Source of the DNA: a virus | Lineage: Duplodnaviria > Caudoviricetes | Strand: one strand, 5' to 3' | DNA length: 60,992 nt | IMG/VR virus record: IMGVR_UViG_3300030202_000714 | Coordinates: 1 to 60,992 of that record | Shown here: positions 1 through 29,236 of the stretch, piece by piece | How the letters are laid out: each line of letters opens with the position of its first letter | How positions within the stretch are numbered: position 1 is the stretch's first letter | Program-made: the position numbers and the translations under genes | Notes under the pieces: model-generated | Told to the model about the DNA's origin: nothing | Seen by the model: the letters and a program-made list of their open reading frames with translations, nothing else | The model's database searches: none

Positions 1-351
1 GAAGTCATATTCCATATCAGACCATAAATGAGGTTCTATCCACACACCACCACCTGATGTCATTTCACTAATAGCTCTTTCAGACCATTCAGCGTAGTCT
101 TCATACTGATAACCATCTTGTGATACATAAGGTCTCTCATCATGAGTACACCAGTATATATCATAGCTATCAGCTGTTGATTCACTGTATATTTTTAGTA
201 TATGGTTCTTATCACACCAGTCAGTTGTATTATCTAGGTTTCCGCCATATTCTGATTCGATGTACTCGATCAGCCAATTAGCATCTGGTTCCTGCATTAT
301 TCCATCGCTCTCAAGAGCTTCAATAATAATATCATCTGTTAGTAACTCCAT
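1..351 (-). CDS. Highly acidic early protein, partial (runs off the left edge); DNA-mimic candidate
   Basis: Manual translation from ATG at 351: MELLTDDIIIEALESDG...WSDMEYDF, open to the window edge; about 29 D/E versus 4 K/R in 117 aa. Confidence 0.75.
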   Translation of the reverse strand, partial: MELLTDDIIIEALESDGIMQEPDANWLIEYIESEYGGNLDNTTDWCDKNHILKIYSESTADSYDIYWCTHDERPYVSQDGYQYEDYAEWSERAISEMTSGGGVWIEPHLWSDMEYDF

Positions 352-590
352 TATTCTTCGATTAGCATTCTGCCACCGTACATAATGTCTTTGGCTGTTA
401 CATCACTTGTATAAAGACCTGCGTAGGACAATAGGGCACTAACATCAGATACTGATAGTTCATGCCATAATACACTACTCATGAGTTTATACTTTAATCT
501 TTTAGCGCTGTCATATTTTCTAGCACTAGCTTGCAACTCTGATTTAAGACTAGGTTGCAGTAAGTCGTAGATTGATTTCATTTTACTCAT
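351..590 (-). CDS. Hypothetical early protein
   Basis: 79-aa ORF just downstream of motif copy 619-650, with A-rich leader AACAATTAAATATAATAACA. Confidence 0.75.
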   Translation of the reverse strand: MSKMKSIYDLLQPSLKSELQASARKYDSAKRLKYKLMSSVLWHELSVSDVSALLSYAGLYTSDVTAKDIMYGGRMLIEE

Positions 591-618
591 TGTTATTATA
601 TTTAATTGTTTGTATATA

Positions 619-650
619 TATTATCCGACTATTGTCGTATTTAATTTGTA
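619..650 (-). promoter_or_regulatory. Early promoter-like motif, copy 1 (TACAA-N6-TAC-N10-GGATAATA)
   Basis: Reverse complement TACAA ATTAAA TAC GACAATAGTC GGATAATA; spacing identical in all six copies. Confidence 0.8.
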
Positions 651-700
651 TTGAGGACGTGGCGGGAGTCGAACCCGCACCTTAGTACCGTAGCACGTCC
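651..700 (-). ncRNA. Mini tRNA-like element (acceptor stem plus T arm, no anticodon arm)
   Basis: Reverse complement GGACGTG-CTACGGTACTAAGGT-GCGGG-TTCGACT-CCCGC-CACGTCC-TCAA: perfect 7-bp acceptor-like stem, 5-bp T stem, TTCGA loop. Confidence 0.7.
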
Positions 701-775
701 ATAACCTCTCTTGTTTTCATCACAAGGCCTACTGTGTATTCCCGAGAGGCGCCACCATGGGATTCCCTGGTTAGC

Positions 776-1018
776 TTAGTTATATATTTTATTAGACTTA
801 CATACCATCCACTCGCAGTTAGTAGGCTTATGTCCTTTTAAAGTCATTAAGTCTTCATAGTCTTCGCATTGTAGATCTGCTCGTCTAATATTGTACATGA
901 ATACTCTGCCTAATTCAAAGTCTAGTATCCATAGATAATTTCTTGCGTCAGAGTTTTCTATTACCTCTAATCTTTCTTCGTCTTGCATTTCATGCCATTT
1001 CTTTACTGAATCACTCAT
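776..1018 (-). CDS. Hypothetical early protein
   Basis: 80-aa ORF within a tightly packed minus-strand run. Confidence 0.7.
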   Translation of the reverse strand: MSDSVKKWHEMQDEERLEVIENSDARNYLWILDFELGRVFMYNIRRADLQCEDYEDLMTLKGHKPTNCEWMVCKSNKIYN

Positions 1019-1229
1019 CGTAATATTTATTAGTTGTTACATCTAGTTTGTTAGCGATGTGGCGAGCGACCAGTCTCATAAGATAACTATGAGTGTCGTT
1101 TGTAAGTGGGGACTCAGCATCTTTAGGTAGAAACTGACCGACTTGCCAATCACTTTGTTTGTATATTTCTTCTATTATATCTGTAGCTATTTCTTCTGCT
1201 ACTATATTCATTTGTTTTATTACTGCCAT
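1011..1229 (-). CDS. Hypothetical early protein
   Basis: 72-aa ORF overlapping the next gene by 8 nt. Confidence 0.7.
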   Translation of the reverse strand: MAVIKQMNIVAEEIATDIIEEIYKQSDWQVGQFLPKDAESPLTNDTHSYLMRLVARHIANKLDVTTNKYYDE

Positions 1230-1233
1230 ATTA

Positions 1234-1446
1234 TTATCTTAAGCATGTTCCATAACCTCTACGAGCGCCAAGCTTTCTTACACGTTTCGCCTGTTCTTTC
1301 GGCATAATTTGTATAGTGTTACCGGTTTTATGGTATGTAAGGGATATACAGCCATAAGGTTCTACTGTGCTACAGTCGACGCAAGAGGTGTACCCAAGTG
1401 CGAGGCGCTGCGGAGGTATTATATTTTTACATTTACATTTTGTCAT
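1234..1446 (-). CDS. Small zinc-finger protein (DksA/TraR C4-type-like)
   Basis: CKC...IPPQRLALGYTSCVDC resembles the C4 finger pattern IPxxRL...CxxC. Confidence 0.6.
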   Translation of the reverse strand: MTKCKCKNIIPPQRLALGYTSCVDCSTVEPYGCISLTYHKTGNTIQIMPKEQAKRVRKLGARRGYGTCLR

Positions 1447-1453
1447 ACAATTA

Positions 1454-1485
1454 TATTATCCAACTGTATTTGTATTTTGTTTGTA
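1454..1485 (-). promoter_or_regulatory. Early promoter-like motif, copy 2
   Basis: Reverse complement TACAA ACAAAA TAC AAATACAGTT GGATAATA; contains the stop codon of 1456..1917. Confidence 0.8.
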
Positions 1486-1917
1486 ATTCTTTAGATAGTA
1501 TTCTAACATATAGTTTAATCTAGCAAGACCTGAATAGATTCTAGCTCTTGATATAGTATTATATGTTTTAGTTACTGTCTTATTTCCTTCTAAAAATACC
1601 CACTTTTTCTTTCTTTTATATGTAGGATTTAGTTGATAAGGTGAGTAGCAACCATTTTGTTTTCTAACATAACCTGTTTTGAAACACGCTAATCTTAATT
1701 TAGGAAACTGATTTGGATTTACTCTTCCATACCTTGTTTTAGGTGCTAGCGAAGATACAGGAAACTCAAATTCTCTTGTACCATTGATCGCTTGTCTTTG
1801 CGTAGTTACTTCTTTAATATTGTATTTAATAAGCAATTGTCTCGCAAAAGCGTCTTCTAACATTTGCTTTTCTTGTTGCCAAGTATATTTATACTCGCCG
1901 TTTTCTAGTATTCTCAT
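1456..1917 (-). CDS. Hypothetical basic early protein
   Basis: 153-aa ORF. Confidence 0.75.
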   Translation of the reverse strand: MRILENGEYKYTWQQEKQMLEDAFARQLLIKYNIKEVTTQRQAINGTREFEFPVSSLAPKTRYGRVNPNQFPKLRLACFKTGYVRKQNGCYSPYQLNPTYKRKKKWVFLEGNKTVTKTYNTISRARIYSGLARLNYMLEYYLKNYKQNTNTVG

Positions 1918-1919
1918 AG

Positions 1920-2165
1920 TTATTTATTAAATTGTTGCATCCACTCCCAGTCTTTACCGAAAGTTTCAGGTGCATATTTGTTATATAGTTCGCATAATTC
2001 TTTTGTCCAACCACCTACTGATTTGACTTTATCTTCAATAATATCACGCTCCATTCTGCCAGATTCATAGTATCTGTTGTCATCACTCATCATATAAGTG
2101 TGGTCATGACACTCAAACATTTCTTCGAGTGATAAATCTTTAAAGTATCTTGGTTTATTCGACAT
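1920..2165 (-). CDS. Hypothetical early protein
   Basis: 81-aa ORF containing HDHTYMMSDD. Confidence 0.75.
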   Translation of the reverse strand: MSNKPRYFKDLSLEEMFECHDHTYMMSDDNRYYESGRMERDIIEDKVKSVGGWTKELCELYNKYAPETFGKDWEWMQQFNK

Positions 2166-2298
2166 AGCTAATTCCGTTTATAGTTATATATTTACGCCAC
2201 TCTTTTGCATAAGGTATTCTTTCATGTAGAACTCCATCAACTAACACGTGAGTAGGCACACCGTGTACATTATGGTTTATATATTTTATCTTTTTCAT
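2155..2298 (-). CDS. Small hypothetical protein (47 aa)
   Basis: Manual translation MKKIKYINHNVHGVPTHVLVDG...GISYVE, directly after motif copy 3. Confidence 0.6.
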   Translation of the reverse strand: MKKIKYINHNVHGVPTHVLVDGVLHERIPYAKEWRKYITINGISYVE

Positions 2299-2303
2299 AT
2301 TAT

Positions 2304-2335
2304 TATTATCCAACTATTTTTGTATTTAAATTGTA
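2304..2335 (-). promoter_or_regulatory. Early promoter-like motif, copy 3
   Basis: Reverse complement TACAA TTTAAA TAC AAAAATAGTT GGATAATA. Confidence 0.8.
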
Positions 2336-2437
2336 ATTTCTATTAAATCTATTAAACCACTCATCTTCAATCATCATTATTTGTTGACGAGTAAGTTTAA
2401 TAATCTTCTTACTTGTATGTTTTCTATAACGTGCCAT
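2306..2437 (-). CDS. Small basic hypothetical protein (43 aa)
   Basis: MARYRKHTSKKIIK...NLNTKIVG; stop lies in the GGATAA of motif copy 3. Confidence 0.5.
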   Translation of the reverse strand: MARYRKHTSKKIIKLTRQQIMMIEDEWFNRFNRNYNLNTKIVG

Positions 2438-2567
2438 AGTAAACATCAGTATATTCTTCAACAGTTACCCACTTATTTATATCGTGTGAGTAAATCATGC
2501 CATCAATCACATGCTCATCAGCAAATGACCATAGTTTCTCGTGTGTGTGTTTTCTAGTAGTTGTCAT
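2424..2567 (-). CDS. Small hypothetical protein (47 aa)
   Basis: MTTTRKHTHEKLWSFADEHVIDG...YYGTL; overlaps both neighbours. Confidence 0.55.
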   Translation of the reverse strand: MTTTRKHTHEKLWSFADEHVIDGMIYSHDINKWVTVEEYTDVYYGTL

Positions 2568-2673
2568 AGACAAGTTGATTTACGTGAGATTTCTCTTCAC
2601 TGGTTAGTAAATTGTAGTGTTTGTTATATATTCTAAACGCTACTTTTAATTTATATGTATTTATATGTGCCAT
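2554..2673 (-). CDS. Small hypothetical protein (39 aa)
   Basis: MAHINTYKLKVAFRIY...LVYDNY. Confidence 0.5.
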   Translation of the reverse strand: MAHINTYKLKVAFRIYNKHYNLLTSEEKSHVNQLVYDNY

Positions 2674-2682
2674 AGTTTAATT

Positions 2683-2784
2683 TTAGCATGGACAAAATAT
2701 CCATAGTGAGATGTATAATATGTAGAATATTAATGCTACAAATACAAAGTTTATTATTATATCTATTATTTTATTCTTTTTCAT
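2683..2784 (-). CDS. Single-pass membrane micropeptide (33 aa)
   Basis: MKKNKIIDIIINFVFVALIFYILYISLWIFCPC; ATGA overlap with the upstream ORF. Confidence 0.5.
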   Translation of the reverse strand: MKKNKIIDIIINFVFVALIFYILYISLWIFCPC

Positions 2785-2924
2785 CTTATTAATATATTAG
2801 CAGTTGCACCTTCGAATATAATAGCATAAATCATTATTGCAATTCCAGTAAATGCTAGTGTGCCAAGTGCACCGATGAATAGTTTGATTGCTACATTAAG
2901 AGCAATGTGAGTGAATTTTCTCAT
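2781..2924 (-). CDS. Membrane micropeptide (47 aa)
   Basis: MRKFTHIALNVAIKLFIGALGTLAFTGIAIMIYAIIF...; conserved A-rich leader. Confidence 0.55.
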   Translation of the reverse strand: MRKFTHIALNVAIKLFIGALGTLAFTGIAIMIYAIIFEGATANILIR

Positions 2925-2944
2925 AGTTAATTGTATTTAATTGT

Positions 2945-2991
2945 TAGTACTAGTGTGTGTAATCGAAACGCACCTCTGCTCCAAGACTAGT
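2945..2991 (-). ncRNA. Second, more degenerate mini tRNA-like element
   Basis: Reverse complement ACTAGT-CTTGGAGCAGAG-GTGCGT-TTCGATT-ACACAC-ACTAGT-ACTA; same architecture as 651-700 with one T-stem mismatch. Confidence 0.5.
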
Positions 2992-3051
2992 TATTCAACT
3001 GTATTTATACTCGAGAGAACTTTGAACGCCGAGTGAATAAAGAATTAGTTA

Positions 3052-3279
3052 TTAAACTAACTCTTTATCTCTAAGTACTAAAGGTATATTGTTAGTAGCA
3101 GTATACGATTTGTACTTTAACCAACATGGTAGTGTAGTTAGTGTATCTTTCATTATTGAAAATACTTTGTCGTGATTGTAAGTTATCTTGTCACCTTTTT
3201 TGTTAGTGAATTCGAATGTTACATTTTTACCGATTAGTGATTGTCTTACGACAAATCTTTTAGTGATTAAGTTACTCAT
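3052..3279 (-). CDS. Hypothetical early protein
   Basis: 75-aa ORF downstream of motif copy 4, with the conserved leader. Confidence 0.8.
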   Translation of the reverse strand: MSNLITKRFVVRQSLIGKNVTFEFTNKKGDKITYNHDKVFSIMKDTLTTLPCWLKYKSYTATNNIPLVLRDKELV

Positions 3280-3316
3280 AGTTATTATATTTAATTGTTA
3301 TTATTAGTTACATTTA

Positions 3317-3348
3317 TATTATCCAAGTTGTATTGTATTGTATTTGTA
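3317..3348 (-). promoter_or_regulatory. Early promoter-like motif, copy 4
   Basis: Reverse complement TACAA ATACAA TAC AATACAACTT GGATAATA. Confidence 0.8.
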
Positions 3349-3454
3349 AAAGTAGTATGTTTGTTTATTAGTAGTTTTAATGTTAGTAGTATTCCGCACA
3401 CTCTCACAACTTCTAATTTTATAATTCATAATTATTACTTTTTACTTACATTAT

Positions 3455-3486
3455 TATTATCCATTTAGTATTGTAGTGAGTTTGTA
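3455..3486 (-). promoter_or_regulatory. Early promoter-like motif, copy 5
   Basis: Reverse complement TACAA ACTCAC TAC AATACTAAAT GGATAATA. Confidence 0.8.
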
Positions 3487-3558
3487 ATAATATGTGAAAT
3501 GTTTTTATAAAATGAATATAAGTAGATGAGCGAGGTGAGCATAATAGTTAACATGTAT

Positions 3559-3590
3559 TACAGAGTAAATACGAAAAATCAAGGATAATA
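3559..3590 (+). promoter_or_regulatory. Promoter-like motif, copy 6, divergent (rightward)
   Basis: TACAG AGTAAA TAC GAAAAATCAA GGATAATA. Confidence 0.7.
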
Positions 3591-3700
3591 AGGGTATAAG
3601 CTGGCGGGGCTAGCTAAATAAAAGGCGTTTTCCTATATGGCATGGTGGTGGAGGGGAGGGGAGCAACACAAACTATCTAATTATCTTATAATTTTTTTTA

Positions 3701-3743
3701 TGACAGTAGCCTTATAGAGTACCCTAGTAATAGGCTAGTGTCA
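3701..3743. repeat. Imperfect inverted repeat in the strand-switch region
   Basis: TGACAgTAGCCT ... AGGCTAgTGTCA. Confidence 0.6.
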
Positions 3744-3786
3744 CTATAGCTTTAAATATCACTTTTTACGTGTAATTATATTGTAT

Positions 3787-4008
3787 ATGGCAAGAGCAAA
3801 TTCACAAGGACTGAGTCCAACAGCATTAAGAGCAAAGCGAGCTAGAGATTTAGCAGCAGCTAAAACACCTAAACGTAGAGCCCGTAAAGCTGAGAACCAG
3901 AGGATAGGTCAAAAACCAGGATCTGACTTGCATCATACATCCAGTGGAACAGTAATACGCACATCGATAGCTTATAATAGAGCTACACATGATAGAGGCG
4001 AAGTATAA
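3787..4008 (+). CDS. Small basic protein, possible degenerate HNH-like
   Basis: ATG at 3787; Arg/Lys-rich N-terminus followed by DLHH...NR. Confidence 0.55.
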   Translation: MARANSQGLSPTALRAKRARDLAAAKTPKRRARKAENQRIGQKPGSDLHHTSSGTVIRTSIAYNRATHDRGEV

Positions 4009-4110
4009 TGGATTTTATACTATGTTTATTATTAGTTGTGTTAAGTTTTGTCTTCCACATGGTAGTGTATGAAGATTAACCTAATTATTAACCCTTAAAA
4101 AACCAAAATT

Positions 4111-4395
4111 ATGACGTTTTTTTATTCGACTAGAACGTGGAATAGTCAACCACAAATTACCGATGAAACCATTTCTTGGTGGAAACATTTATCTACTAAG
4201 AAAAACTGGAGAATAGTTCAGTTACCAAATGGCTTTTATCAAACCGAATACCTAGATTTAGATGAAAACTGGGTAGATGTTACAAGAAGAGAAACAATTG
4301 AATCAGCTGAGGCTGCAATTGATGGTAGCATCGAACATTACAACAAAAAGTTAGAGTTCACAAAAGGACCTAAAGTTGTAAAAACATTTAAATAG
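4111..4395 (+). CDS. Hypothetical protein
   Basis: 94-aa ORF with an A-rich leader, upstream of groEL. Confidence 0.8.
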   Translation: MTFFYSTRTWNSQPQITDETISWWKHLSTKKNWRIVQLPNGFYQTEYLDLDENWVDVTRRETIESAEAAIDGSIEHYNKKLEFTKGPKVVKTFK

Positions 4396-4417
4396 TAACT
4401 AAATAAAATATAATTTA

Positions 4418-5977
4418 ATGGAATTTAATAACCCAAGTCAATTGGTCAAGCATCTTAACTTTGGTGATGATGCTAATGACAAAATAATGAGTGGTGTAGA
4501 TCAACTAGCTAAAGCTGTTAAATCTACACTAGGTGCTTCTGGTAAATGCGTTATATATGAAGATGCAACAGGAAGACCGGTGATTACAAAAGATGGTGTA
4601 ACCGTTGCGGAAAGCGTAGTCTTATATGATCCGGTCGAAAATATAGGTGCAACACTTATAAAGGAAGCAGCTAAAAACACGGTGAAAGAAGCTGGAGACG
4701 GTACCACAACGGCTATCGTCTTAGCTGAATCACTACTAAAAGAAGTAAATAACAGCGATAATGTACGAGAAATTAAAGAAGGTATTAACTCAGGACTTGA
4801 AAAAGTTAATAAATACCTTTCTAAACACTCCAAAGCAGTATCTGGCGATAATCTTAAATACGTATCAACAATAAGTTGTAACAATGATAGTGAATTAGGT
4901 GGTATTATAGCCGATGCTTACACGAAAGTAGGTAAAGATGGTGTAGTATTGATGGAGGAAAGTGAGACGGATGAAACTTATACAGACATCGTTGAAGGTG
5001 TACAGTTAGAAAATGGCTTAACATCGCCATATTTTGCTACAGACACTGAAAAACAAAAATGTGAATTAGAAAATCCGCTAATTTTAATAGTTTCTAGTGA
5101 AATTCCTAGTGTTAGGAAGATACAAAACATACTAGAACATGTAATTAAGAATAATAGATCGCTTTTAATAGTGGCTACTGTTGCTCAGCAGGTAAAATCT
5201 GCGCTTTTAATGAATAAAGTTAAAGGTAATATAAAAGTAAACATTATAAATCCACCAGGATTTGGCCCAACTAAGCGAGATACTATAGATGATTTAGCTA
5301 TTTTAACAGGGGCTAAGGTAATAAATGAAGAATTAGGTGACGATTTGGATCTAATTCAACCAGATTGTCTTGGTGAAGCTAAATTTTCAATAACTGACGA
5401 TAAAAATACAGTTATAACTACTTATAATGTACAAGAAGACATAGAGGGTAGGGTAAAAGAGGTTAAAAAGCTCATAAAAAATGAAAAAAATGGCTTTTTA
5501 AGAAAAAAATTAGAAAATAGACTTGCTATGTTATGCGGTTCTGTTGGTATTATACGTGTTGGTGCTAATTCTAAGGTAGAATTAAAAGAAAAGAAGGATA
5601 GAGTTGAAGATGCAATATACGCAGTTAAAGCCGCTTTGCAAGAAGGTATTGTCCCAGGTGGCGGTATCGCTCTTTTAAATGCTGCAAATAACATAAAGTT
5701 TGATAATATTGGGGAGAATATACTAGCTACAGCAATTCAAGCACCATTTAAAACCATTATGGCAAATGCTGGTATTGAAAACTACGATACGCCTAAAGAT
5801 TTAGGTGTTGGGTACAATGTAATTTCCGGTAAACTAGTTGATATGGTTGACTCTGGTATCGTAGACCCCGTCTTAGTTACAAAGACAGCACTAAAAAATG
5901 CAGTTAGTGTTGCAACTACTATATTTTCTGCAGATTGTGTAATTAATAATATAAGAGTAGAAAATGCGAGCAGTTAG
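4418..5977 (+). CDS. groEL: Phage-encoded chaperonin GroEL (Cpn60)
   Basis: ITKDGVTVA, AGDGTTTA, PGFG, EGIVPGGG and GIVDP motifs; no GGM tail. Confidence 0.97.
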   Translation: MEFNNPSQLVKHLNFGDDANDKIMSGVDQLAKAVKSTLGASGKCVIYEDATGRPVITKDGVTVAESVVLYDPVENIGATLIKEAAKNTVKEAGDGTTTAIVLAESLLKEVNNSDNVREIKEGINSGLEKVNKYLSKHSKAVSGDNLKYVSTISCNNDSELGGIIADAYTKVGKDGVVLMEESETDETYTDIVEGVQLENGLTSPYFATDTEKQKCELENPLILIVSSEIPSVRKIQNILEHVIKNNRSLLIVATVAQQVKSALLMNKVKGNIKVNIINPPGFGPTKRDTIDDLAILTGAKVINEELGDDLDLIQPDCLGEAKFSITDDKNTVITTYNVQEDIEGRVKEVKKLIKNEKNGFLRKKLENRLAMLCGSVGIIRVGANSKVELKEKKDRVEDAIYAVKAALQEGIVPGGGIALLNAANNIKFDNIGENILATAIQAPFKTIMANAGIENYDTPKDLGVGYNVISGKLVDMVDSGIVDPVLVTKTALKNAVSVATTIFSADCVINNIRVENASS

Positions 5978-6230
5978 TTTATATATAGTAGTAGAAAACA
6001 TAAAGCTAAAACCTAAAACAATAGGTGGCTTAGAAATATCTGATAACATAGACAGTGACAATAGATATTTAAAAGGAAAAGTTATTAGTAAAGGTGATCT
6101 TTGTCCTCCAGATGAGGTTTTAAAAGTAGACGATATTGTCTATTATGACAAACATGCTGGCCACGAGATAACATATAATAACAAACAATACTATGTCATG
6201 ACTATTAAAGACATAGTTTTAGTAGAATGA
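5964..6230 (+). CDS. groES: Co-chaperonin GroES (Cpn10)
   Basis: KTIGGLEI mobile loop, GKVIS.G, LKVDDIVYYDKHAG; adjacent to groEL. Confidence 0.85.
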   Translation: MRAVSLYIVVENIKLKPKTIGGLEISDNIDSDNRYLKGKVISKGDLCPPDEVLKVDDIVYYDKHAGHEITYNNKQYYVMTIKDIVLVE

Positions 6231-26005: not shown

Positions 26006-26201
26006 TATCGGTAAAGATTACAAAAATGAAGCTATGCACTACTCCGTAGATCAAGAGGTTTACGGAGGGCATATCATCGATTGTATAGTTGAGGAAGACG
26101 ACAAATACAGTGTTTATATTAAAAAAGAAAACGAGGTTTTACCTTGGAAAGATTTTAATAAAAACATGGCTATAGCTGTTGAGTACAATTTAGAATATTA
26201 A
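25983..26201 (+). CDS. Hypothetical protein
   Basis: Likely start ATG at 25983 (MRLIRKISIG...). Confidence 0.7.
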   Translation: MRLIRKISIGKDYKNEAMHYSVDQEVYGGHIIDCIVEEDDKYSVYIKKENEVLPWKDFNKNMAIAVEYNLEY

Positions 26202-26797
26202 TGCAAGGTCTTTATTATTTTGTAGTTAAACCAGTAAATTCAAGATATAACAATATTAAGAAAATAGGTGATAAATCACTTATTACAAATACTGAGAATT
26301 TTACACATCAAAATGTAAATAGAAACGCTATAGTTATATCTACACCTAAAGGTTTTGAAACTAATATAAATATAGGTGATGAAATTATCGTTCATCATAA
26401 TGTTTTTAGAAGGTGGAAAGATATAAGAGGCGTAGAGCAAAATAGTAAAGGATATTTTGAAGAAGATAAATATTTTGTTCAACTAGATCAAATATACTTA
26501 TATAAAAATAACAACACTTGGAAATCAGTAGATGAGTATTGTTTTGTTAAACCAATACATGCTATTGATAATTTTAGTATAGAAAAAGAGCAACCATTAA
26601 TTGGTGTTTTAAAATATACCAACAATCACGAATATTTAAATACTTTAAAACCTGGTGATTTAGTAGGATTCGTACCTCGTAGTGAATACGAGTTTATAAT
26701 AAACGATGAGCGTTTATATAGAGTTCAAACAAGTGCAATTACAATTAAATATGAATATCAAGGAAAAGAAAGAGAATATAATCCAAGCTGGTTATAA
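26201..26797 (+). CDS. Protein with two tandem GroES-like domains
   Basis: Both halves show FV.KP...[IL]..GD.[IV]; the second ends EYEFIINDERLYRV..SAI. Confidence 0.55.
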   Translation: MQGLYYFVVKPVNSRYNNIKKIGDKSLITNTENFTHQNVNRNAIVISTPKGFETNINIGDEIIVHHNVFRRWKDIRGVEQNSKGYFEEDKYFVQLDQIYLYKNNNTWKSVDEYCFVKPIHAIDNFSIEKEQPLIGVLKYTNNHEYLNTLKPGDLVGFVPRSEYEFIINDERLYRVQTSAITIKYEYQGKEREYNPSWL

Positions 26798-27026: not shown

Positions 27027-29236
27027 TGTATCAGCAAAGTTTATATAGTATTATACAACCTATAAAGTTAAACACTATTAAGAGGTTGAATAAAAAAAAG
27101 GCTTGGAAATATGGTTACAATAAAGAAAATGATGTTGTTGTAATTAGTAAGACAGGACAGATAGGCGATGTGTATAGCATACAAGGTTTGAAAATAGCTT
27201 TGCCAAAAGTTCCAAAAGAAGTACACGTATTTAAGAATAATACTTGGCAGGTAACAGAATACCCTAAAGAGCTAAATAGAATTAAAACAATATTTGATTG
27301 GCGTGAGTATCCAGAGGACTTTAAAAAAAAGTATATTGGTTATATAGAAAATGAGTTTACGAAAAGAGAAAATGGTTTCTGGTTTAGTAATAATGATATA
27401 CCTACTTACATTACTGGCACACATTATATGTATCTTCAGTGGTCTAAAATTGATGTAGGACATCCAGATTTTAGAGAAGCAAATAGATTATTTTATATAT
27501 TCTGGGAAGCTTGTAAAGCTGATAATAGATGTTATGGTATGTGTTATCTTAAGAATAGACGATCTGGTTTTTCGTTTATGGCATCTGGTGAGACAGTTAA
27601 TTTAGCTACTATATCTAGTGACGCTAGATTTGGTATACTATCTAAATCTGGTCCTGATGCTAAAAAGATGTTTACAGACAAGGTAGTACCAATATCAGTT
27701 AACTATCCTTTCTTTTTTAAACCGATTCAAGATGGTATGGATCGACCTAAAACTGAGCTAGCGTATAGAGTACCAGCTAGTAAGTTAACAAGAAGAAACA
27801 TTACATCTACTGAAAACAGGCCTGAGGAATTAACAGGATTAGACACAACTATTGACTGGAAAAATACAGGTGATAATAGTTATGATGGTGAAAAATTAAA
27901 ACTGTTAGTACATGATGAGAGTGGTAAGTGGGAGAGACCAAACAATATATTAAACAACTGGCGTGTAACAAAAACTACATTAAGATTAGGTAGTAGAATT
28001 ATTGGTAAGTGTATGATGGGGTCAACATCAAATGCTTTAGATAAAGGAGGTGATAACTTTAAAAAACTATATTATGATTCAGACGTTACCAAAAGAAACC
28101 GCAATGGACAGACTAGCTCGGGATTATATAGTTTGTTCATACCTATGGAATGGAACTACGAAGGATTCATTGATTCTAATGGAATACCTGTATTCGAAAC
28201 GCCAACAGAAGAGGTTAAGGGACCATTTGGAGACTATATAGATATAGGTGTTATTGATCATTGGCAAAACGAAGCCGATGGATTAAAGAATGATCAAGAC
28301 GCATTAAATGAATTTTATAGACAATTTCCAAGAACTGAAGAACATGCTTTCAGAGATGAAACTAAAAACAGTATATTTAATTTAGTAAAAATATACGAGC
28401 AAATAGATATAAATGAAGAGGTTGCTAATTATAGTAGAGGTAATTTCCAATGGGCAGGTGGTATAAAAGATACTACTGTTAGGTTTTTACCAAATCAACA
28501 AGGTAGATTTAATATATCTTGGACCCCACCACTTCATCTACAAAATAAACAAGTAGTTAAAAACGGTTTAAAATATCCTGGTAATGAACACATGGGTGCT
28601 TTTGGTTGTGATAGCTACGATATATCAGGTACAGTTGATGGTAAAGGTTCTAAAGGAGCTTTACACGGATTAACAAAGTTTAGCATGGAAGATGCCCCTG
28701 CTAATTCTTTTTTCTTAGAGTACTTAGCTAGACCTCAGACATCCGAGATGTTCTTTGAGGACGTTCTAATGGCTTTAGTATTTTATGGGATGCCAATACT
28801 CGCTGAGAACAATAAACCTCGTCTATTGTATTATTTAAAAAGACGTGGTTATAGAGGTTATTCAATGAATAGACCTGATAAAGTTTGGAATAAATTATCT
28901 GTAGCAGAAAAAGAAGTTGGTGGAATGCCTAATTCAAGTGAAGATATTAAACAAGCTCACGCTGCTGCGATTGAAATGTATATAAATGATCATGTAGGTT
29001 TAAAAGCTGATGGTGAATATGGAGACATGGTATTTAACAACACATTAAATGATTGGGCTGGTTTTGATATAACAAGAAGAACTAAGTATGATGCAACAAT
29101 TAGTAGTGGTTTAGCTATTATGGCTTGTAATAGACATTTATACAACCCAAGATCAAATGTACAAAGAGATAAAATAAACTTAAAAATAGCTAAATATAAA
29201 AATAAAGGCTATAATTCAAAATTAATAAAACAATAA
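27026..29236 (+). CDS. terL: Terminase large subunit
   Basis: Walker A KNRRSGFS, Walker B LLVHDESGK, nuclease GCDSYD; upstream of the portal. Confidence 0.9.
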   Translation: MYQQSLYSIIQPIKLNTIKRLNKKKAWKYGYNKENDVVVISKTGQIGDVYSIQGLKIALPKVPKEVHVFKNNTWQVTEYPKELNRIKTIFDWREYPEDFKKKYIGYIENEFTKRENGFWFSNNDIPTYITGTHYMYLQWSKIDVGHPDFREANRLFYIFWEACKADNRCYGMCYLKNRRSGFSFMASGETVNLATISSDARFGILSKSGPDAKKMFTDKVVPISVNYPFFFKPIQDGMDRPKTELAYRVPASKLTRRNITSTENRPEELTGLDTTIDWKNTGDNSYDGEKLKLLVHDESGKWERPNNILNNWRVTKTTLRLGSRIIGKCMMGSTSNALDKGGDNFKKLYYDSDVTKRNRNGQTSSGLYSLFIPMEWNYEGFIDSNGIPVFETPTEEVKGPFGDYIDIGVIDHWQNEADGLKNDQDALNEFYRQFPRTEEHAFRDETKNSIFNLVKIYEQIDINEEVANYSRGNFQWAGGIKDTTVRFLPNQQGRFNISWTPPLHLQNKQVVKNGLKYPGNEHMGAFGCDSYDISGTVDGKGSKGALHGLTKFSMEDAPANSFFLEYLARPQTSEMFFEDVLMALVFYGMPILAENNKPRLLYYLKRRGYRGYSMNRPDKVWNKLSVAEKEVGGMPNSSEDIKQAHAAAIEMYINDHVGLKADGEYGDMVFNNTLNDWAGFDITRRTKYDATISSGLAIMACNRHLYNPRSNVQRDKINLKIAKYKNKGYNSKLIKQ

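Follow-up and report, generated by a model that had tools for sequence, protein, structure and literature searches.

Tag-less phage mini-tmRNAs (transfer-messenger RNAs without the tag-encoding part) are already known as a kind from Mycobacterium phage DS6A, whose tmRNA consists of the tRNA-like domain (TLD) only. Here we describe a 50-nt tRNA-like element on the minus strand (positions 651–700) of a 60,992-bp viral contig that is 94% complete (Caudoviricetes; IMG/VR record IMGVR_UViG_3300030202_000714, positions 1 to 60,992, the whole of which is called the window below). The DS6A element, which together with the engineered-TLD precedent reportedly goes back to Mao et al. in 2009, as later papers cite that work, is 83 nt long (NC_023744.1, ~28478–28560; L290 179–261), lies between gp33 and gp34, scores 43.2 bits and ends in ACTA; it has no annotated feature in the RefSeq record. 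It comprises an acceptor, a single-stranded D-loop analogue and a T-arm, with no tag frame or pseudoknots, and its expected action, according to passages of PMC4131195 and PMC11915505, is interference with host tmRNA–SmpB. The window RNA shares this phage-encoded, tag-less TLD design. DS6A keeps G3:U70, A73 and a paired helix-2 stub, whereas the window RNA, at 50 nt and 18.1 bits, has A3:U70 and U73 and lacks both the stub and a DS6A-like alanine identity. Mini-tmRNA genes in the window's relatives, termed type 1 below, share the DS6A design closely. Unlike DS6A, the window RNA belongs to a separate, covarying family (type 2), whose typical members are not tmRNA-like in acceptor sequence.

Synthetic acceptor/T-arm minihelices are substrates of RNase P, the CCA-adding enzyme and some synthetases. 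They share with the window RNA a 12-bp coaxial helix, the minimal unit for tRNA end-processing enzymes, and differ from it in being laboratory constructs without the conserved 15-nt elbow linker, whereas the window RNA represents a natural gene family; the rules of minihelix charging have been compiled (PMC9976931). Natural tag-less tmRNAs are found in jakobid and other mitochondria, and ~65-bp forms in two Mallomonadaceae plastids (passages of PMC11915505). Like the RNA described here they have no tag frame and are reduced to little beyond the TLD, but they co-occur with SmpB and are thought, in the same passages, still to help with incomplete mRNAs. Full-length phage tmRNAs occur in Cellulophaga phages, among them the deposited relatives phi38:1 and Calle_1, and in the mycobacteriophage cluster with Bxz1. 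The Cellulophaga ones belong to a related phage assemblage and also have a CCA-less tail (ACTAA); unlike the window RNA they are 362 nt long, carry a predicted tag frame and score 87–88 bits, over the Rfam threshold. Bartlau 2021, as excerpted (PMC8776804), only counts one tmRNA in phage Calle. YrlA-type Y RNAs, like the window RNA, are non-coding and carry a tRNA-like module without decoding function, and the M. smegmatis YrlA, with its 7-bp acceptor stem, is cut by RNase P and CCA-tailed; YrlA also adjoins the Ro60 gene, and nothing here corresponds to that gene or to YrlA's Ro-binding stem, D arm and GNCGAAN0-1G motif (excerpts of PMC4201824).

Our literature search returned no description of an anticodon-less 50-nt tRNA-like family or of mini-tmRNAs in flavobacterial phages. 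New here are a covarying 50-nt family without helix 2 or alanine identity, widespread in uncultured marine phage contigs and co-resident with a presumably chargeable kind, and first evidence of CCA addition.

The 50-nt element and its covarying family

We consider it very probable that 651–700 is a genuine gene for a small RNA that undergoes processing and belongs to a conserved family. Read from 700 to 651, the sequence runs GGACGTG / CTACGGTACTAAGGT / GCGGG-TTCGACT-CCCGC / CACGTCC / T-CAA and divides into the following parts.

651–700, minus strand: the entire 50-nt tRNA-like element (type 2), with acceptor stem, linker, T-arm, discriminator and tail
694–700, minus strand: acceptor 5′ strand GGACGTG; A at position 3 pairs with U70, where same-slot type-1 genes have G
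679–693, minus strand: single-stranded linker CTACGGTACTAAGGT, a 15-nt D-loop analogue that replaces D arm, anticodon arm and helix 2
662–678, minus strand: T-arm GCGGG / TTCGACT / CCCGC, read from sequence and fold
655–661, minus strand: acceptor 3′ strand CACGTCC, identical in type-1 elements and many tmRNAs
651–654, minus strand: discriminator T (654) and genomic tail CAA (653–651), with no encoded CCA; the probable site of 3′ processing and CCA addition

The structure that a sequence-only reading of this DNA had described is present exactly: its perfect 7-bp stem stacks directly on a 5-bp stem, also perfect, that carries a canonical T-loop; the GG of the 15-nt linker lies 4 nt past the acceptor stem, and the 3′ tail reads TCAA rather than CCA. 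The minimum-free-energy fold equals the proposed structure, with an unexceptional energy (z = −1.57; 17 of 200 shuffles equal it), and the folding z-score of region 620–800 is non-significant (−1.72). The element is placed in a 185-nt gap (591–775) between minus-strand ORFs 776–1018 and 351–590, and the GC-rich island that had been noted there is real, with 54% GC in 651–750 vs 24–41% in adjacent bins. When the window is scanned for a T-arm, a stacked 7-bp acceptor and a linker of at most 30 nt, one element is returned, against a mean of 0.025 per dinucleotide shuffle (5 of 200 shuffles contain one).

Standard gene finders pass over the locus. ARAGORN predicts 0 genes in the window, neither tRNA nor tmRNA, and Rfam at gathering scores has no match there; these two checks, which the sequence-only reading had proposed, found no gene or family. 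Under permissive settings the sole Rfam match in the 61-kb window is tmRNA (RF00023), end to end across exactly 651–700, at 18.1 bits vs a gathering score of 47 (E 2.8e-5 for 601 nt, 0.0028 for 61 kb). The alignment uses model positions 1–17 and 346–374, with 328 internal positions deleted, and the tRNA-clan match in the window scored lower. Among the models to which the element had been likened, the tmRNA TLD is therefore the best fit to the window copy. The likeness to Y RNA fell away, with no Y RNA match in Rfam up to E 10 in 400–1000 and no Ro60-type protein among the proteins scanned, as did that to mascRNA (RF01684), which has no match in the window and reaches 19.3 bits (E 7.5) in one relative vs a gathering score of 42.5. 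Of the features that define a tmRNA, the element has the TLD and lacks G3:U70 and A73, the mRNA-like domain (resume codon, tag frame, stop, helix 2, pseudoknots) and a score of 47 bits; the cloverleaf of a tRNA, with D and anticodon arms, is likewise absent from the window.

The 24 nt that span the T-arm and 3′ strand are identical to an RNA-gene terminus on 22 other viral contigs; in 17 of them the 24-mer coincides with a tmRNA called by ARAGORN or has one only a few bases away, and in 19 it is followed by ACCA. Compared with those tmRNA-type termini, the window has A rather than G at position 3 opposite U70, T rather than A as the discriminator, and no CCA. Taken by itself, the window sequence is suggestive, not decisive, and the beyond-chance case rests on comparative data.

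Relatives of the element were collected with a linker-based pattern, which fixed 20 of the 50 positions outright and limited 2 more; it gave 11 viral loci and 112 metagenome stretches (80 of the latter were fetched), to which the window was added. The type-2 family has 91 copies and 30 distinct 50-mers, from uncultured marine phage contigs. Pairing is complete in the acceptor (7/7) of 28 of the 30 distinct variants and in the T stem (5/5) of 29, so that 98.6% of 360 cells in the alignment are paired, vs 39–55% in slid registers. Seven of the 12 pairs, including 6 of the 7 acceptor pairs, vary on both sides, in 34 cells, and the covariation score of 0.330, vs 0.152 in shuffles, is attained by 0 of 500 shuffles. 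The selection on pairing that intact stems had suggested is borne out by these figures: the structure is conserved by selection across a marine phage family.

Across all 24 distinct members the linker varies at one position between A and G and, in a single variant, at another between C and T, and is otherwise identical. It is this linker, too, that is found in the four copies retrieved without the linker pattern: the window copy; L047 and L057, which synteny revealed; and L056, which the covariance model detected and whose T stem lies outside the pattern. A linker-blind scan detected no other short-linker class. The family, modelled as R1, is characterised by a 7-bp acceptor, the 15-nt linker CTACGGTA(C/T)TAA(A/G)GT, a 5-bp T stem, a TTCRANT loop, no G3:U70 and no encoded CCA. 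Direct reading of the window copy finds every one of these features, and its stem is unique among the 30 variants; the covariance model scores it at 77.7 bits, a match by construction since the window is one of the 30 seed sequences. In arrays, type-2 genes sit 4–9 nt from tRNA genes, like members of a tRNA cluster. A divergent 46-nt acceptor/T-arm minihelix at L049 669–714, with a 10-nt linker TGGTACACGA and T stem GTGTG/CACAC, scores 26.4 bits on R1 and may be a further reduced type-2 relative.

Evidence of processing comes from metatranscriptomes. Parts of window 300–2300 are present in 14 marine/seawater DNA runs and 6 metatranscriptome runs, and contigs of 4 RNA runs were aligned; their depth cannot rank regions, and uncovered parts carry no meaning. 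Contigs of runs X15, X16 and X17 cover the element, with loose ends that indicate several relatives in type-2 and type-1 contexts, and X18 has no cover over it. Record 14 of X17 (67 nt, depth 12.8) aligns to 653–695 and then continues, in the RNA sense, with C-A and 22 more A's where the genome has TCAATAC. It reads ...CACGTCC-T-C-C-A-(A)n, the discriminator followed by C-C-A and an A-tail, of which the part after T654-C653 is non-templated. This suggests 3′ processing of the tRNA type, the addition of CCA, and polyadenylation that took place either in the cell or as the library was prepared. The RNase P/Z signature expected from the sequence, a discrete RNA with added CCA, is thus seen in one metatranscriptome contig. 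The missing encoded CCA is not a defect, because 21 of 32 Bacteroidota tmRNA genes examined also have tails such as ACTA, ACAA, ACTT and similar rather than ACCA, and phage tRNA-Met genes in the relatives' arrays likewise lack it. Passages of PMC4201824 name a 7-bp acceptor stem as a major determinant for RNase P and state that the tRNA-like module of Y RNA is cleaved and CCA-tailed in vivo.

Mini-tmRNAs, flanks and distribution in relatives

Relatives were located through flanking proteins, and in them small structured RNAs fill this intergenic region in variable arrays. Type-1 genes, which are tag-less mini-tmRNAs of ~75–165 nt with a helix-2 stub, G3:U70 and A73, are present in at least 9 of the 15 relatives whose records were scanned or read.

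L049 2864–2940: type-1 tag-less mini-tmRNA
L043 3289–3379: type-1 tag-less mini-tmRNA
L053 2843–2943: type-1 tag-less mini-tmRNA
L050 323–425: type-1 tag-less mini-tmRNA
L046 2723–2801: type-1 tag-less mini-tmRNA
L054 1975–2050: type-1 tag-less mini-tmRNA
L057 3909–4042: type-1 tag-less mini-tmRNA

Type-1 genes start with GGGCGTG or with compensated variants such as GGGAGTG/CACTTCC and GGGTGTG/CACATCC. A D-loop analogue (for example ATATGGTAAG) and a variable insert follow, with 41–129 nt in total between acceptor stem and T-arm, and the tails are ACTAA or ACAA, with no encoded CCA. The Rfam tmRNA model matches them end to end at 27.5–39 bits, with acceptor, D-loop, helix-2 base and T-arm retained. 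The type-1 acceptor of L128, GGGGGTG/CACCTCC, is the commonest acceptor of the sampled Bacteroidota host tmRNAs (19/32), unlike the other phage copies.

The slot occupied by the 50-nt element holds a tag-less type-1 mini-tmRNA of 77–101 nt in close relatives (77 nt in L049, for instance). On both sides the window is collinear with and near-identical to L049, in the hairpin block at 748–706 and from a promoter-like motif through the next ORF start.

706–748, minus strand: conserved upstream hairpin block CTCTCGGGAATACACAGTAGGCCTTGTGATGAAAACAAGAGAG, near-invariant in the window, L049, L043 and L053
751–775, minus strand: extra GC-rich hairpin GCTAACCAGGGAATCCCATGGTGGC, in the window only among four aligned slots
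619–641, minus strand: promoter-like motif AATACGA-N8-GGATAATA, located 10 nt past the element, before ORF 351–590

The sequence-only reading had held that a full tRNA at this place in relatives would mark the element as a recent deletion pseudogene. A longer gene is indeed there, but it is a mini-tmRNA of 77–101 nt and not a tRNA, and the 50-nt form is no deletion pseudogene because it is itself a conserved, covarying family. The window stem equals the type-1 acceptor stem except for G3→A, and the discriminator is changed from A73 to T; the linker is that of type 2 and is not derivable by deletion from the type-1 sequence. By its sequence, then, the window copy is a hybrid of a type-1 stem and a type-2 linker, a combination that argues for replacement by, or conversion to, a non-chargeable design and against random deletion.

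The two types divide at the identity positions. Across 146 elements (61 distinct) from the window and L043–L149, G3:U70 and A73 are present in 18/18 distinct type-1 variants. G3:U70 occurs in 0 of 24 distinct type-2 variants, where 3:70 is G:C in 18, A:U in 4 and U:A in 2; of these variants 18 have T as the discriminator, 3 have C and 3 have A. Intermediates between the types exist in L051 and L068, each with a type-1-like gene that has a long insert and A3:U70. The spacing from the acceptor stem to GGTA is 4 nt in type 2 and most type 1, and 4–6 nt in sampled host tmRNAs. Bacterial alanine determinants include G3.U70 and A73 (PMC9976931, Table 1), and because these are split between the types, type 1 is presumably charged with alanine and type 2 not.

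The 43-nt block at 748–706 shows one compensated outer-stem change in L053 and precedes the same-slot type-1 gene in relatives; it may be a leader. The motif AATAC(G/A)A-N8-GGATAATA, kept in relatives, is probably a promoter: it lies on the minus strand at 619–641, 1454–1476, 2304–2326, 3317–3339 and 3455–3477 and on the plus strand at 3568–3590, and is counted 10 times in the window vs 4.0 expected, a number that 0 of 100 shuffles reach. Seven matches, including all with at most 1 mismatch, cluster in 619–3590. This region is divergent and early-looking, and the motif does not fit a sigma-70 scan. As the next promoter-like motif begins 10 nt downstream, the element is the last feature of the upstream transcription unit; no intrinsic terminator was found in 1–4200. 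A small upstream hairpin that ends 3–5 nt from the element is present in ~44 of 63 type-2 contexts (a dot-bracket count made by hand), though not in the window, and reaches −3 kcal/mol or lower in 34 of 63. An own promoter for type 2 was considered and rejected, as 0 of 63 upstream contexts match the relaxed promoter-like motif.

The phage itself is a podovirus of roughly 60–70 kb, kin to Flavobacteriia phages. Its genome encodes GroEL/GroES, ribonucleotide reductase, terminase, portal, tail fibres and lysis genes; the 519-aa GroEL (PHROG E 4.8e-135) and GroES lie at 4418–6230 on the plus strand, and a second GroES-annotated ORF lies at 26201–26797. The terminase is 45% identical to those of Flavobacterium 'elemo' podophages, 37–38% to those of Cellulophaga phages, 33% to that of a Tenacibaculum phage and 63% to that of one uncultured record, and on account of this relatedness the likely hosts are marine Flavobacteriia. 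No integrase was found among the 49 ORFs scanned.

We surveyed 15 relatives (85–100% complete) and the window for both types; as 7 of the records were chosen for having type 2, the proportions are biased.

Both types: G152, G154, G161, G163 (n=4)
Type 1 only: G153, G155, G156, G157, G159 (n=5)
Only a weak A3:U70 type-1-like form, 16 bits: G158 (n=1)
Type 2 only: G160, G162, G164, G165, G166 and the window (n=6)

None of the 16 records is without a tmRNA-like element, and type 2 is single-copy in every record that has one. Beyond this group, R1 detects no type 2 in any of 5 deposited relatives scanned. MW202828, an elemo phage and phi13:2 have no end-to-end match to the tmRNA model, phi13:2 showing only two 13–15-bit T-arm matches. 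R1 has no match at E <= 1e-5 in the 151 Bacteroidota genomes sampled, a search of low power (39 candidates per genome, no positive control). Against a phage collection of 50,697 records, megablast of window 1–6000 gives no match, blastn of the 50-mer gives only 26–29-nt partial matches in 6 Porphyromonas phages, and blastn of a type-1 gene gives T-arm-sized matches only. Neither these searches nor the deposited relatives brought up a cultured phage with the 50-nt gene. The pattern GGACGTG, a 5–30-nt gap and the T-arm retrieves 19 loci and 0 mini-elements in viral contigs, all 19 being internal tRNA or tmRNA pieces with a non-pairing 3′ strand.

Two further ideas were set aside. Mimicry of a host gene through the ACCA-ended terminus is non-diagnostic, since that terminus is found in 56 genome contigs from many phyla, with no Flavobacteriia, and 31 of 32 Bacteroidota tmRNA genes examined use other acceptor stems. 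For an antisense role, the linker's reverse complement was compared with 3.3-kb Bacteroidota tmRNA loci and matches them over 9 nt at most, no more than chance would give.

Several other RNAs were seen along the way. A second tmRNA of a Saprospiraceae metagenome-assembled genome (L239; genome G001, C12 52052–52453) has a GGGCGTG/CACGTCC acceptor and a junction like that of the tmRNAs on L002, L009 and other viral contigs, and may be prophage-borne. A third tRNA-like family (L057, L067, L068, L070, L074, L076, L088, L104) has the acceptor AACTAGG/TCTAGTT or a close variant, discriminator A, the T-arm AGAGG-TTCRATT-CCTCT (TGAGG/CCTCA in L070) and an insert of 45–85 nt that ends in ...CGACGGATA(A/T) or ...TGACG(A/G)GTA(A/T); it corresponds to no Rfam family. 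Between RNA genes lies a conserved structured block GGGT(T)AAAACA(C/A)GAAGGACGG ... AGCGTGG ... TGCAC ... CACCC with a variable insert (L058 ~2800–2875, L047 ~2840–2960, also L046, L050, L056 and L057; no Rfam match at E <= 1). A conserved block of ~75 nt closed by ACCGGC/GCCGGT (…AAATCGACGCCTTGGCTTCCTTGAGGTATCAGTTGTACAAAGCCAGTCGTAGTGACA…) occurs at L043 ~3385–3460 and also in L054, L047 and L056, again with no Rfam match.

Candidate roles of the 50-nt RNA

Tentatively, we favour the reading that the 50-nt RNA is an uncharged mimic of the tmRNA TLD that titrates SmpB and so interferes with tmRNA. The RNA would be transcribed within the early-looking leftward block; RNase P would free its 5′ end, the tRNA 3′ endonuclease would cut after the discriminator, and a host enzyme would then add CCA. 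Uncharged with alanine, the processed RNA would act as a stable TLD mimic that binds SmpB at the elbow/D-loop surface in competition with host tmRNA, and this competition would dampen or redirect trans-translation (tagging, rescue) during infection. Engineered TLD versions inhibit tmRNA/SmpB whether or not they are chargeable, according to excerpts of PMC4131195. According to passages of PMC3968760, SmpB attaches at the elbow of the TLD and lends stability to its single-stranded D-loop, contacts between D and T loops are required, and helix 2 merely mimics a variable arm. Type 2 retains the acceptor stem, the T-loop and a stemless GG linker at tmRNA-like spacing and lacks only helix 2, and we favour the SmpB-competing mimic because the surfaces that SmpB binds are kept. 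A decoy role, as had been proposed from the letters alone, is the one preferred here too, with SmpB as the target; a decoy for anticodon-directed toxins makes little sense without an anticodon.

Several observations weigh against this reading. Helix 2, absent here, is present in every natural and engineered TLD checked. Typical type-2 acceptors (for example GAGCATA/TATGCTC) and the mostly U73 discriminator are unlike tmRNA, and the 3′ part of the linker (AAGGT) is nearer to a tRNA variable loop than to the tmRNA junction (ttcggac in host genes). The Rfam tRNA model scores five typical members at 20–24 bits (threshold 29) with both arms deleted, and the Rfam tmRNA model gives 15.7–19 bits for A73 variants and the window only, below threshold as the tRNA scores are; type 2 may descend either from a tRNA or from the TLD of a tmRNA. 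Among the window proteins (49 scanned with PHROGs, 40 with Pfam) none was found that would connect the RNA with ribosome rescue, be it SmpB, a rescue factor or an RNA enzyme, and RNA polymerase and Ro60 were not found either. Pattern-based retrieval accounts for part of the linker's conservation. Four relatives carry both types, which are hence not simple substitutes, and a type-1 gene could sit in the missing 6% of the window record. Finally, the CCA evidence is one contig from one run, RNA libraries may contain DNA, and contigs cannot define a 5′ end.

A more far-reaching version of the SmpB reading, which we regard as rather doubtful, sees a two-part RNA toolkit of marine Flavobacteriia phages against host ribosome rescue, derived by stepwise reduction of a phage tmRNA. 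The proposed series would run from the ~360-nt full tmRNA through the ~75–165-nt alanine-accepting, tag-less mini-tmRNA to the 50-nt form. The last would have been actively stripped of alanine identity (the window differs from the mini-tmRNA stem exactly at 3 and 73) and, processed and CCA-tailed, would bind SmpB or an SmpB-like defence sensor and never be charged, as a pure RNA decoy against rescue or defence.

Other accounts do without SmpB. A general decoy of the tRNA top half, in which the CCA-tailed minihelix soaks up some other host factor that recognises the acceptor end, T-arm or elbow, seems to us unlikely. Candidate targets are toxins that act on the 3′ ends or acceptor stems of tRNAs by modification or cleavage, and defence systems whose RNA-binding domains resemble SmpB; toxins directed at tRNA acceptor ends exist. 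The RNA keeps exactly acceptor, T-arm, elbow and post-processing CCA and nothing of the anticodon half, it lies among small early-type ORFs typical of host-takeover regions, and its typical relatives are not especially tmRNA-like, all of which such a decoy accommodates, as it does the defence systems with SmpB-like OB folds that are predicted, in passages of PMC10542128, to bind tmRNA or tRNA-like RNA. Yet no such toxin or system has been identified for the hosts, nothing in the window links to one, and the slot-sharing and chimerism with mini-tmRNA genes and the universal TLD-like gene in relatives would be left unexplained. Quite unlikely, too, is a module acting in cis, a cut site for RNase P or the 3′ endonuclease that separates transcripts, sets the 3′ end of the mRNA before it or the 5′ end of the one after it, or blocks exonucleases, the excised RNA being inert in trans. 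The end-of-unit position ahead of the promoter-like motif, with no terminator at hand, would suit this role, as would an ATG, a possible ORF start, within 30 nt downstream in 12 of 30 distinct contexts (counted by eye) and the CCA-tailed contig, which shows handling as a tRNA-like substrate. But a cut site needs no near-invariant 15-nt linker while both stems drift, and the element also stands between tRNA genes, which bring their own cut sites. Its downstream contexts are varied (ORFs of different families, tRNAs, other RNAs, promoter-like motifs), offering no single cis target, and there is one copy per genome rather than one per transcript junction.

Charging with another amino acid, glycine or cysteine via U73, would make the minihelix an amino-acid donor or a ligand of EF-Tu or the ribosome. 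U73 in 18 of 24 distinct variants, G1:C72 and G3:C70 in 25/30 each, the CCA added in one contig and the U73 rules (PMC9976931) speak for it; the idea is nevertheless improbable, given a discriminator that is not fixed (T 18, C 3, A 3 of 24), a 2:71 pair that is A:U in 24/30 and C:G in only 3, and a window copy whose G2:C71 and A3:U70 fit neither set. Moreover, the RNA offers no anticodon to GlyRS or CysRS, both strong anticodon users. We think it very improbable that the element is a decaying, non-functional remnant of a type-1 mini-tmRNA or tRNA with an internal deletion and point mutations. The longer gene in the same slot of close relatives and the unique stem would agree with decay, as would the unremarkable fold energy and the fact that both differences from type 1 destroy alanine identity; against it, the linker is the exact linker of an independent, strongly covarying family and no type-1 deletion product, both stems are still perfect, and type 2 is the only form in 6 of 16 tallied records, 5 of them at least 95% complete. 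Scarcely credible, finally, is the view that the element is left over from an attachment site, at which an integrating phage would carry the 3′ end of a tmRNA or tRNA gene of its host. The identity of the 24-nt T-arm and 3′ strand to many tmRNA gene termini invites the idea, but no integrase is present among the 49 ORFs, the complementary 5′ strand lies 15 nt upstream and covaries, and the terminus occurs in many phyla with no Flavobacteriia among 56 matches, the sampled Bacteroidota tmRNAs using other acceptors.

Meaning for phage biology

Little has been charted of how phages use RNA imitations of host RNAs in taking over the host, and DS6A is the only tag-less phage mini-tmRNA discussed in the literature surveyed. 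A widespread group of uncultured marine phages commonly carries such genes, in presumably chargeable and non-chargeable designs, the latter down to 50 nt. Standard annotation misses them, as ARAGORN and the Rfam gathering thresholds do in the window and the RefSeq record does for DS6A. If the toolkit reading is true, no natural tRNA-like gene family smaller than the 50-nt form would be known. Should the RNA titrate SmpB, trans-translation, a pathway at which antibiotics are being aimed, would have a natural inhibitor of minimal size, and one that offers a handle on why phages sometimes boost and sometimes block ribosome rescue.

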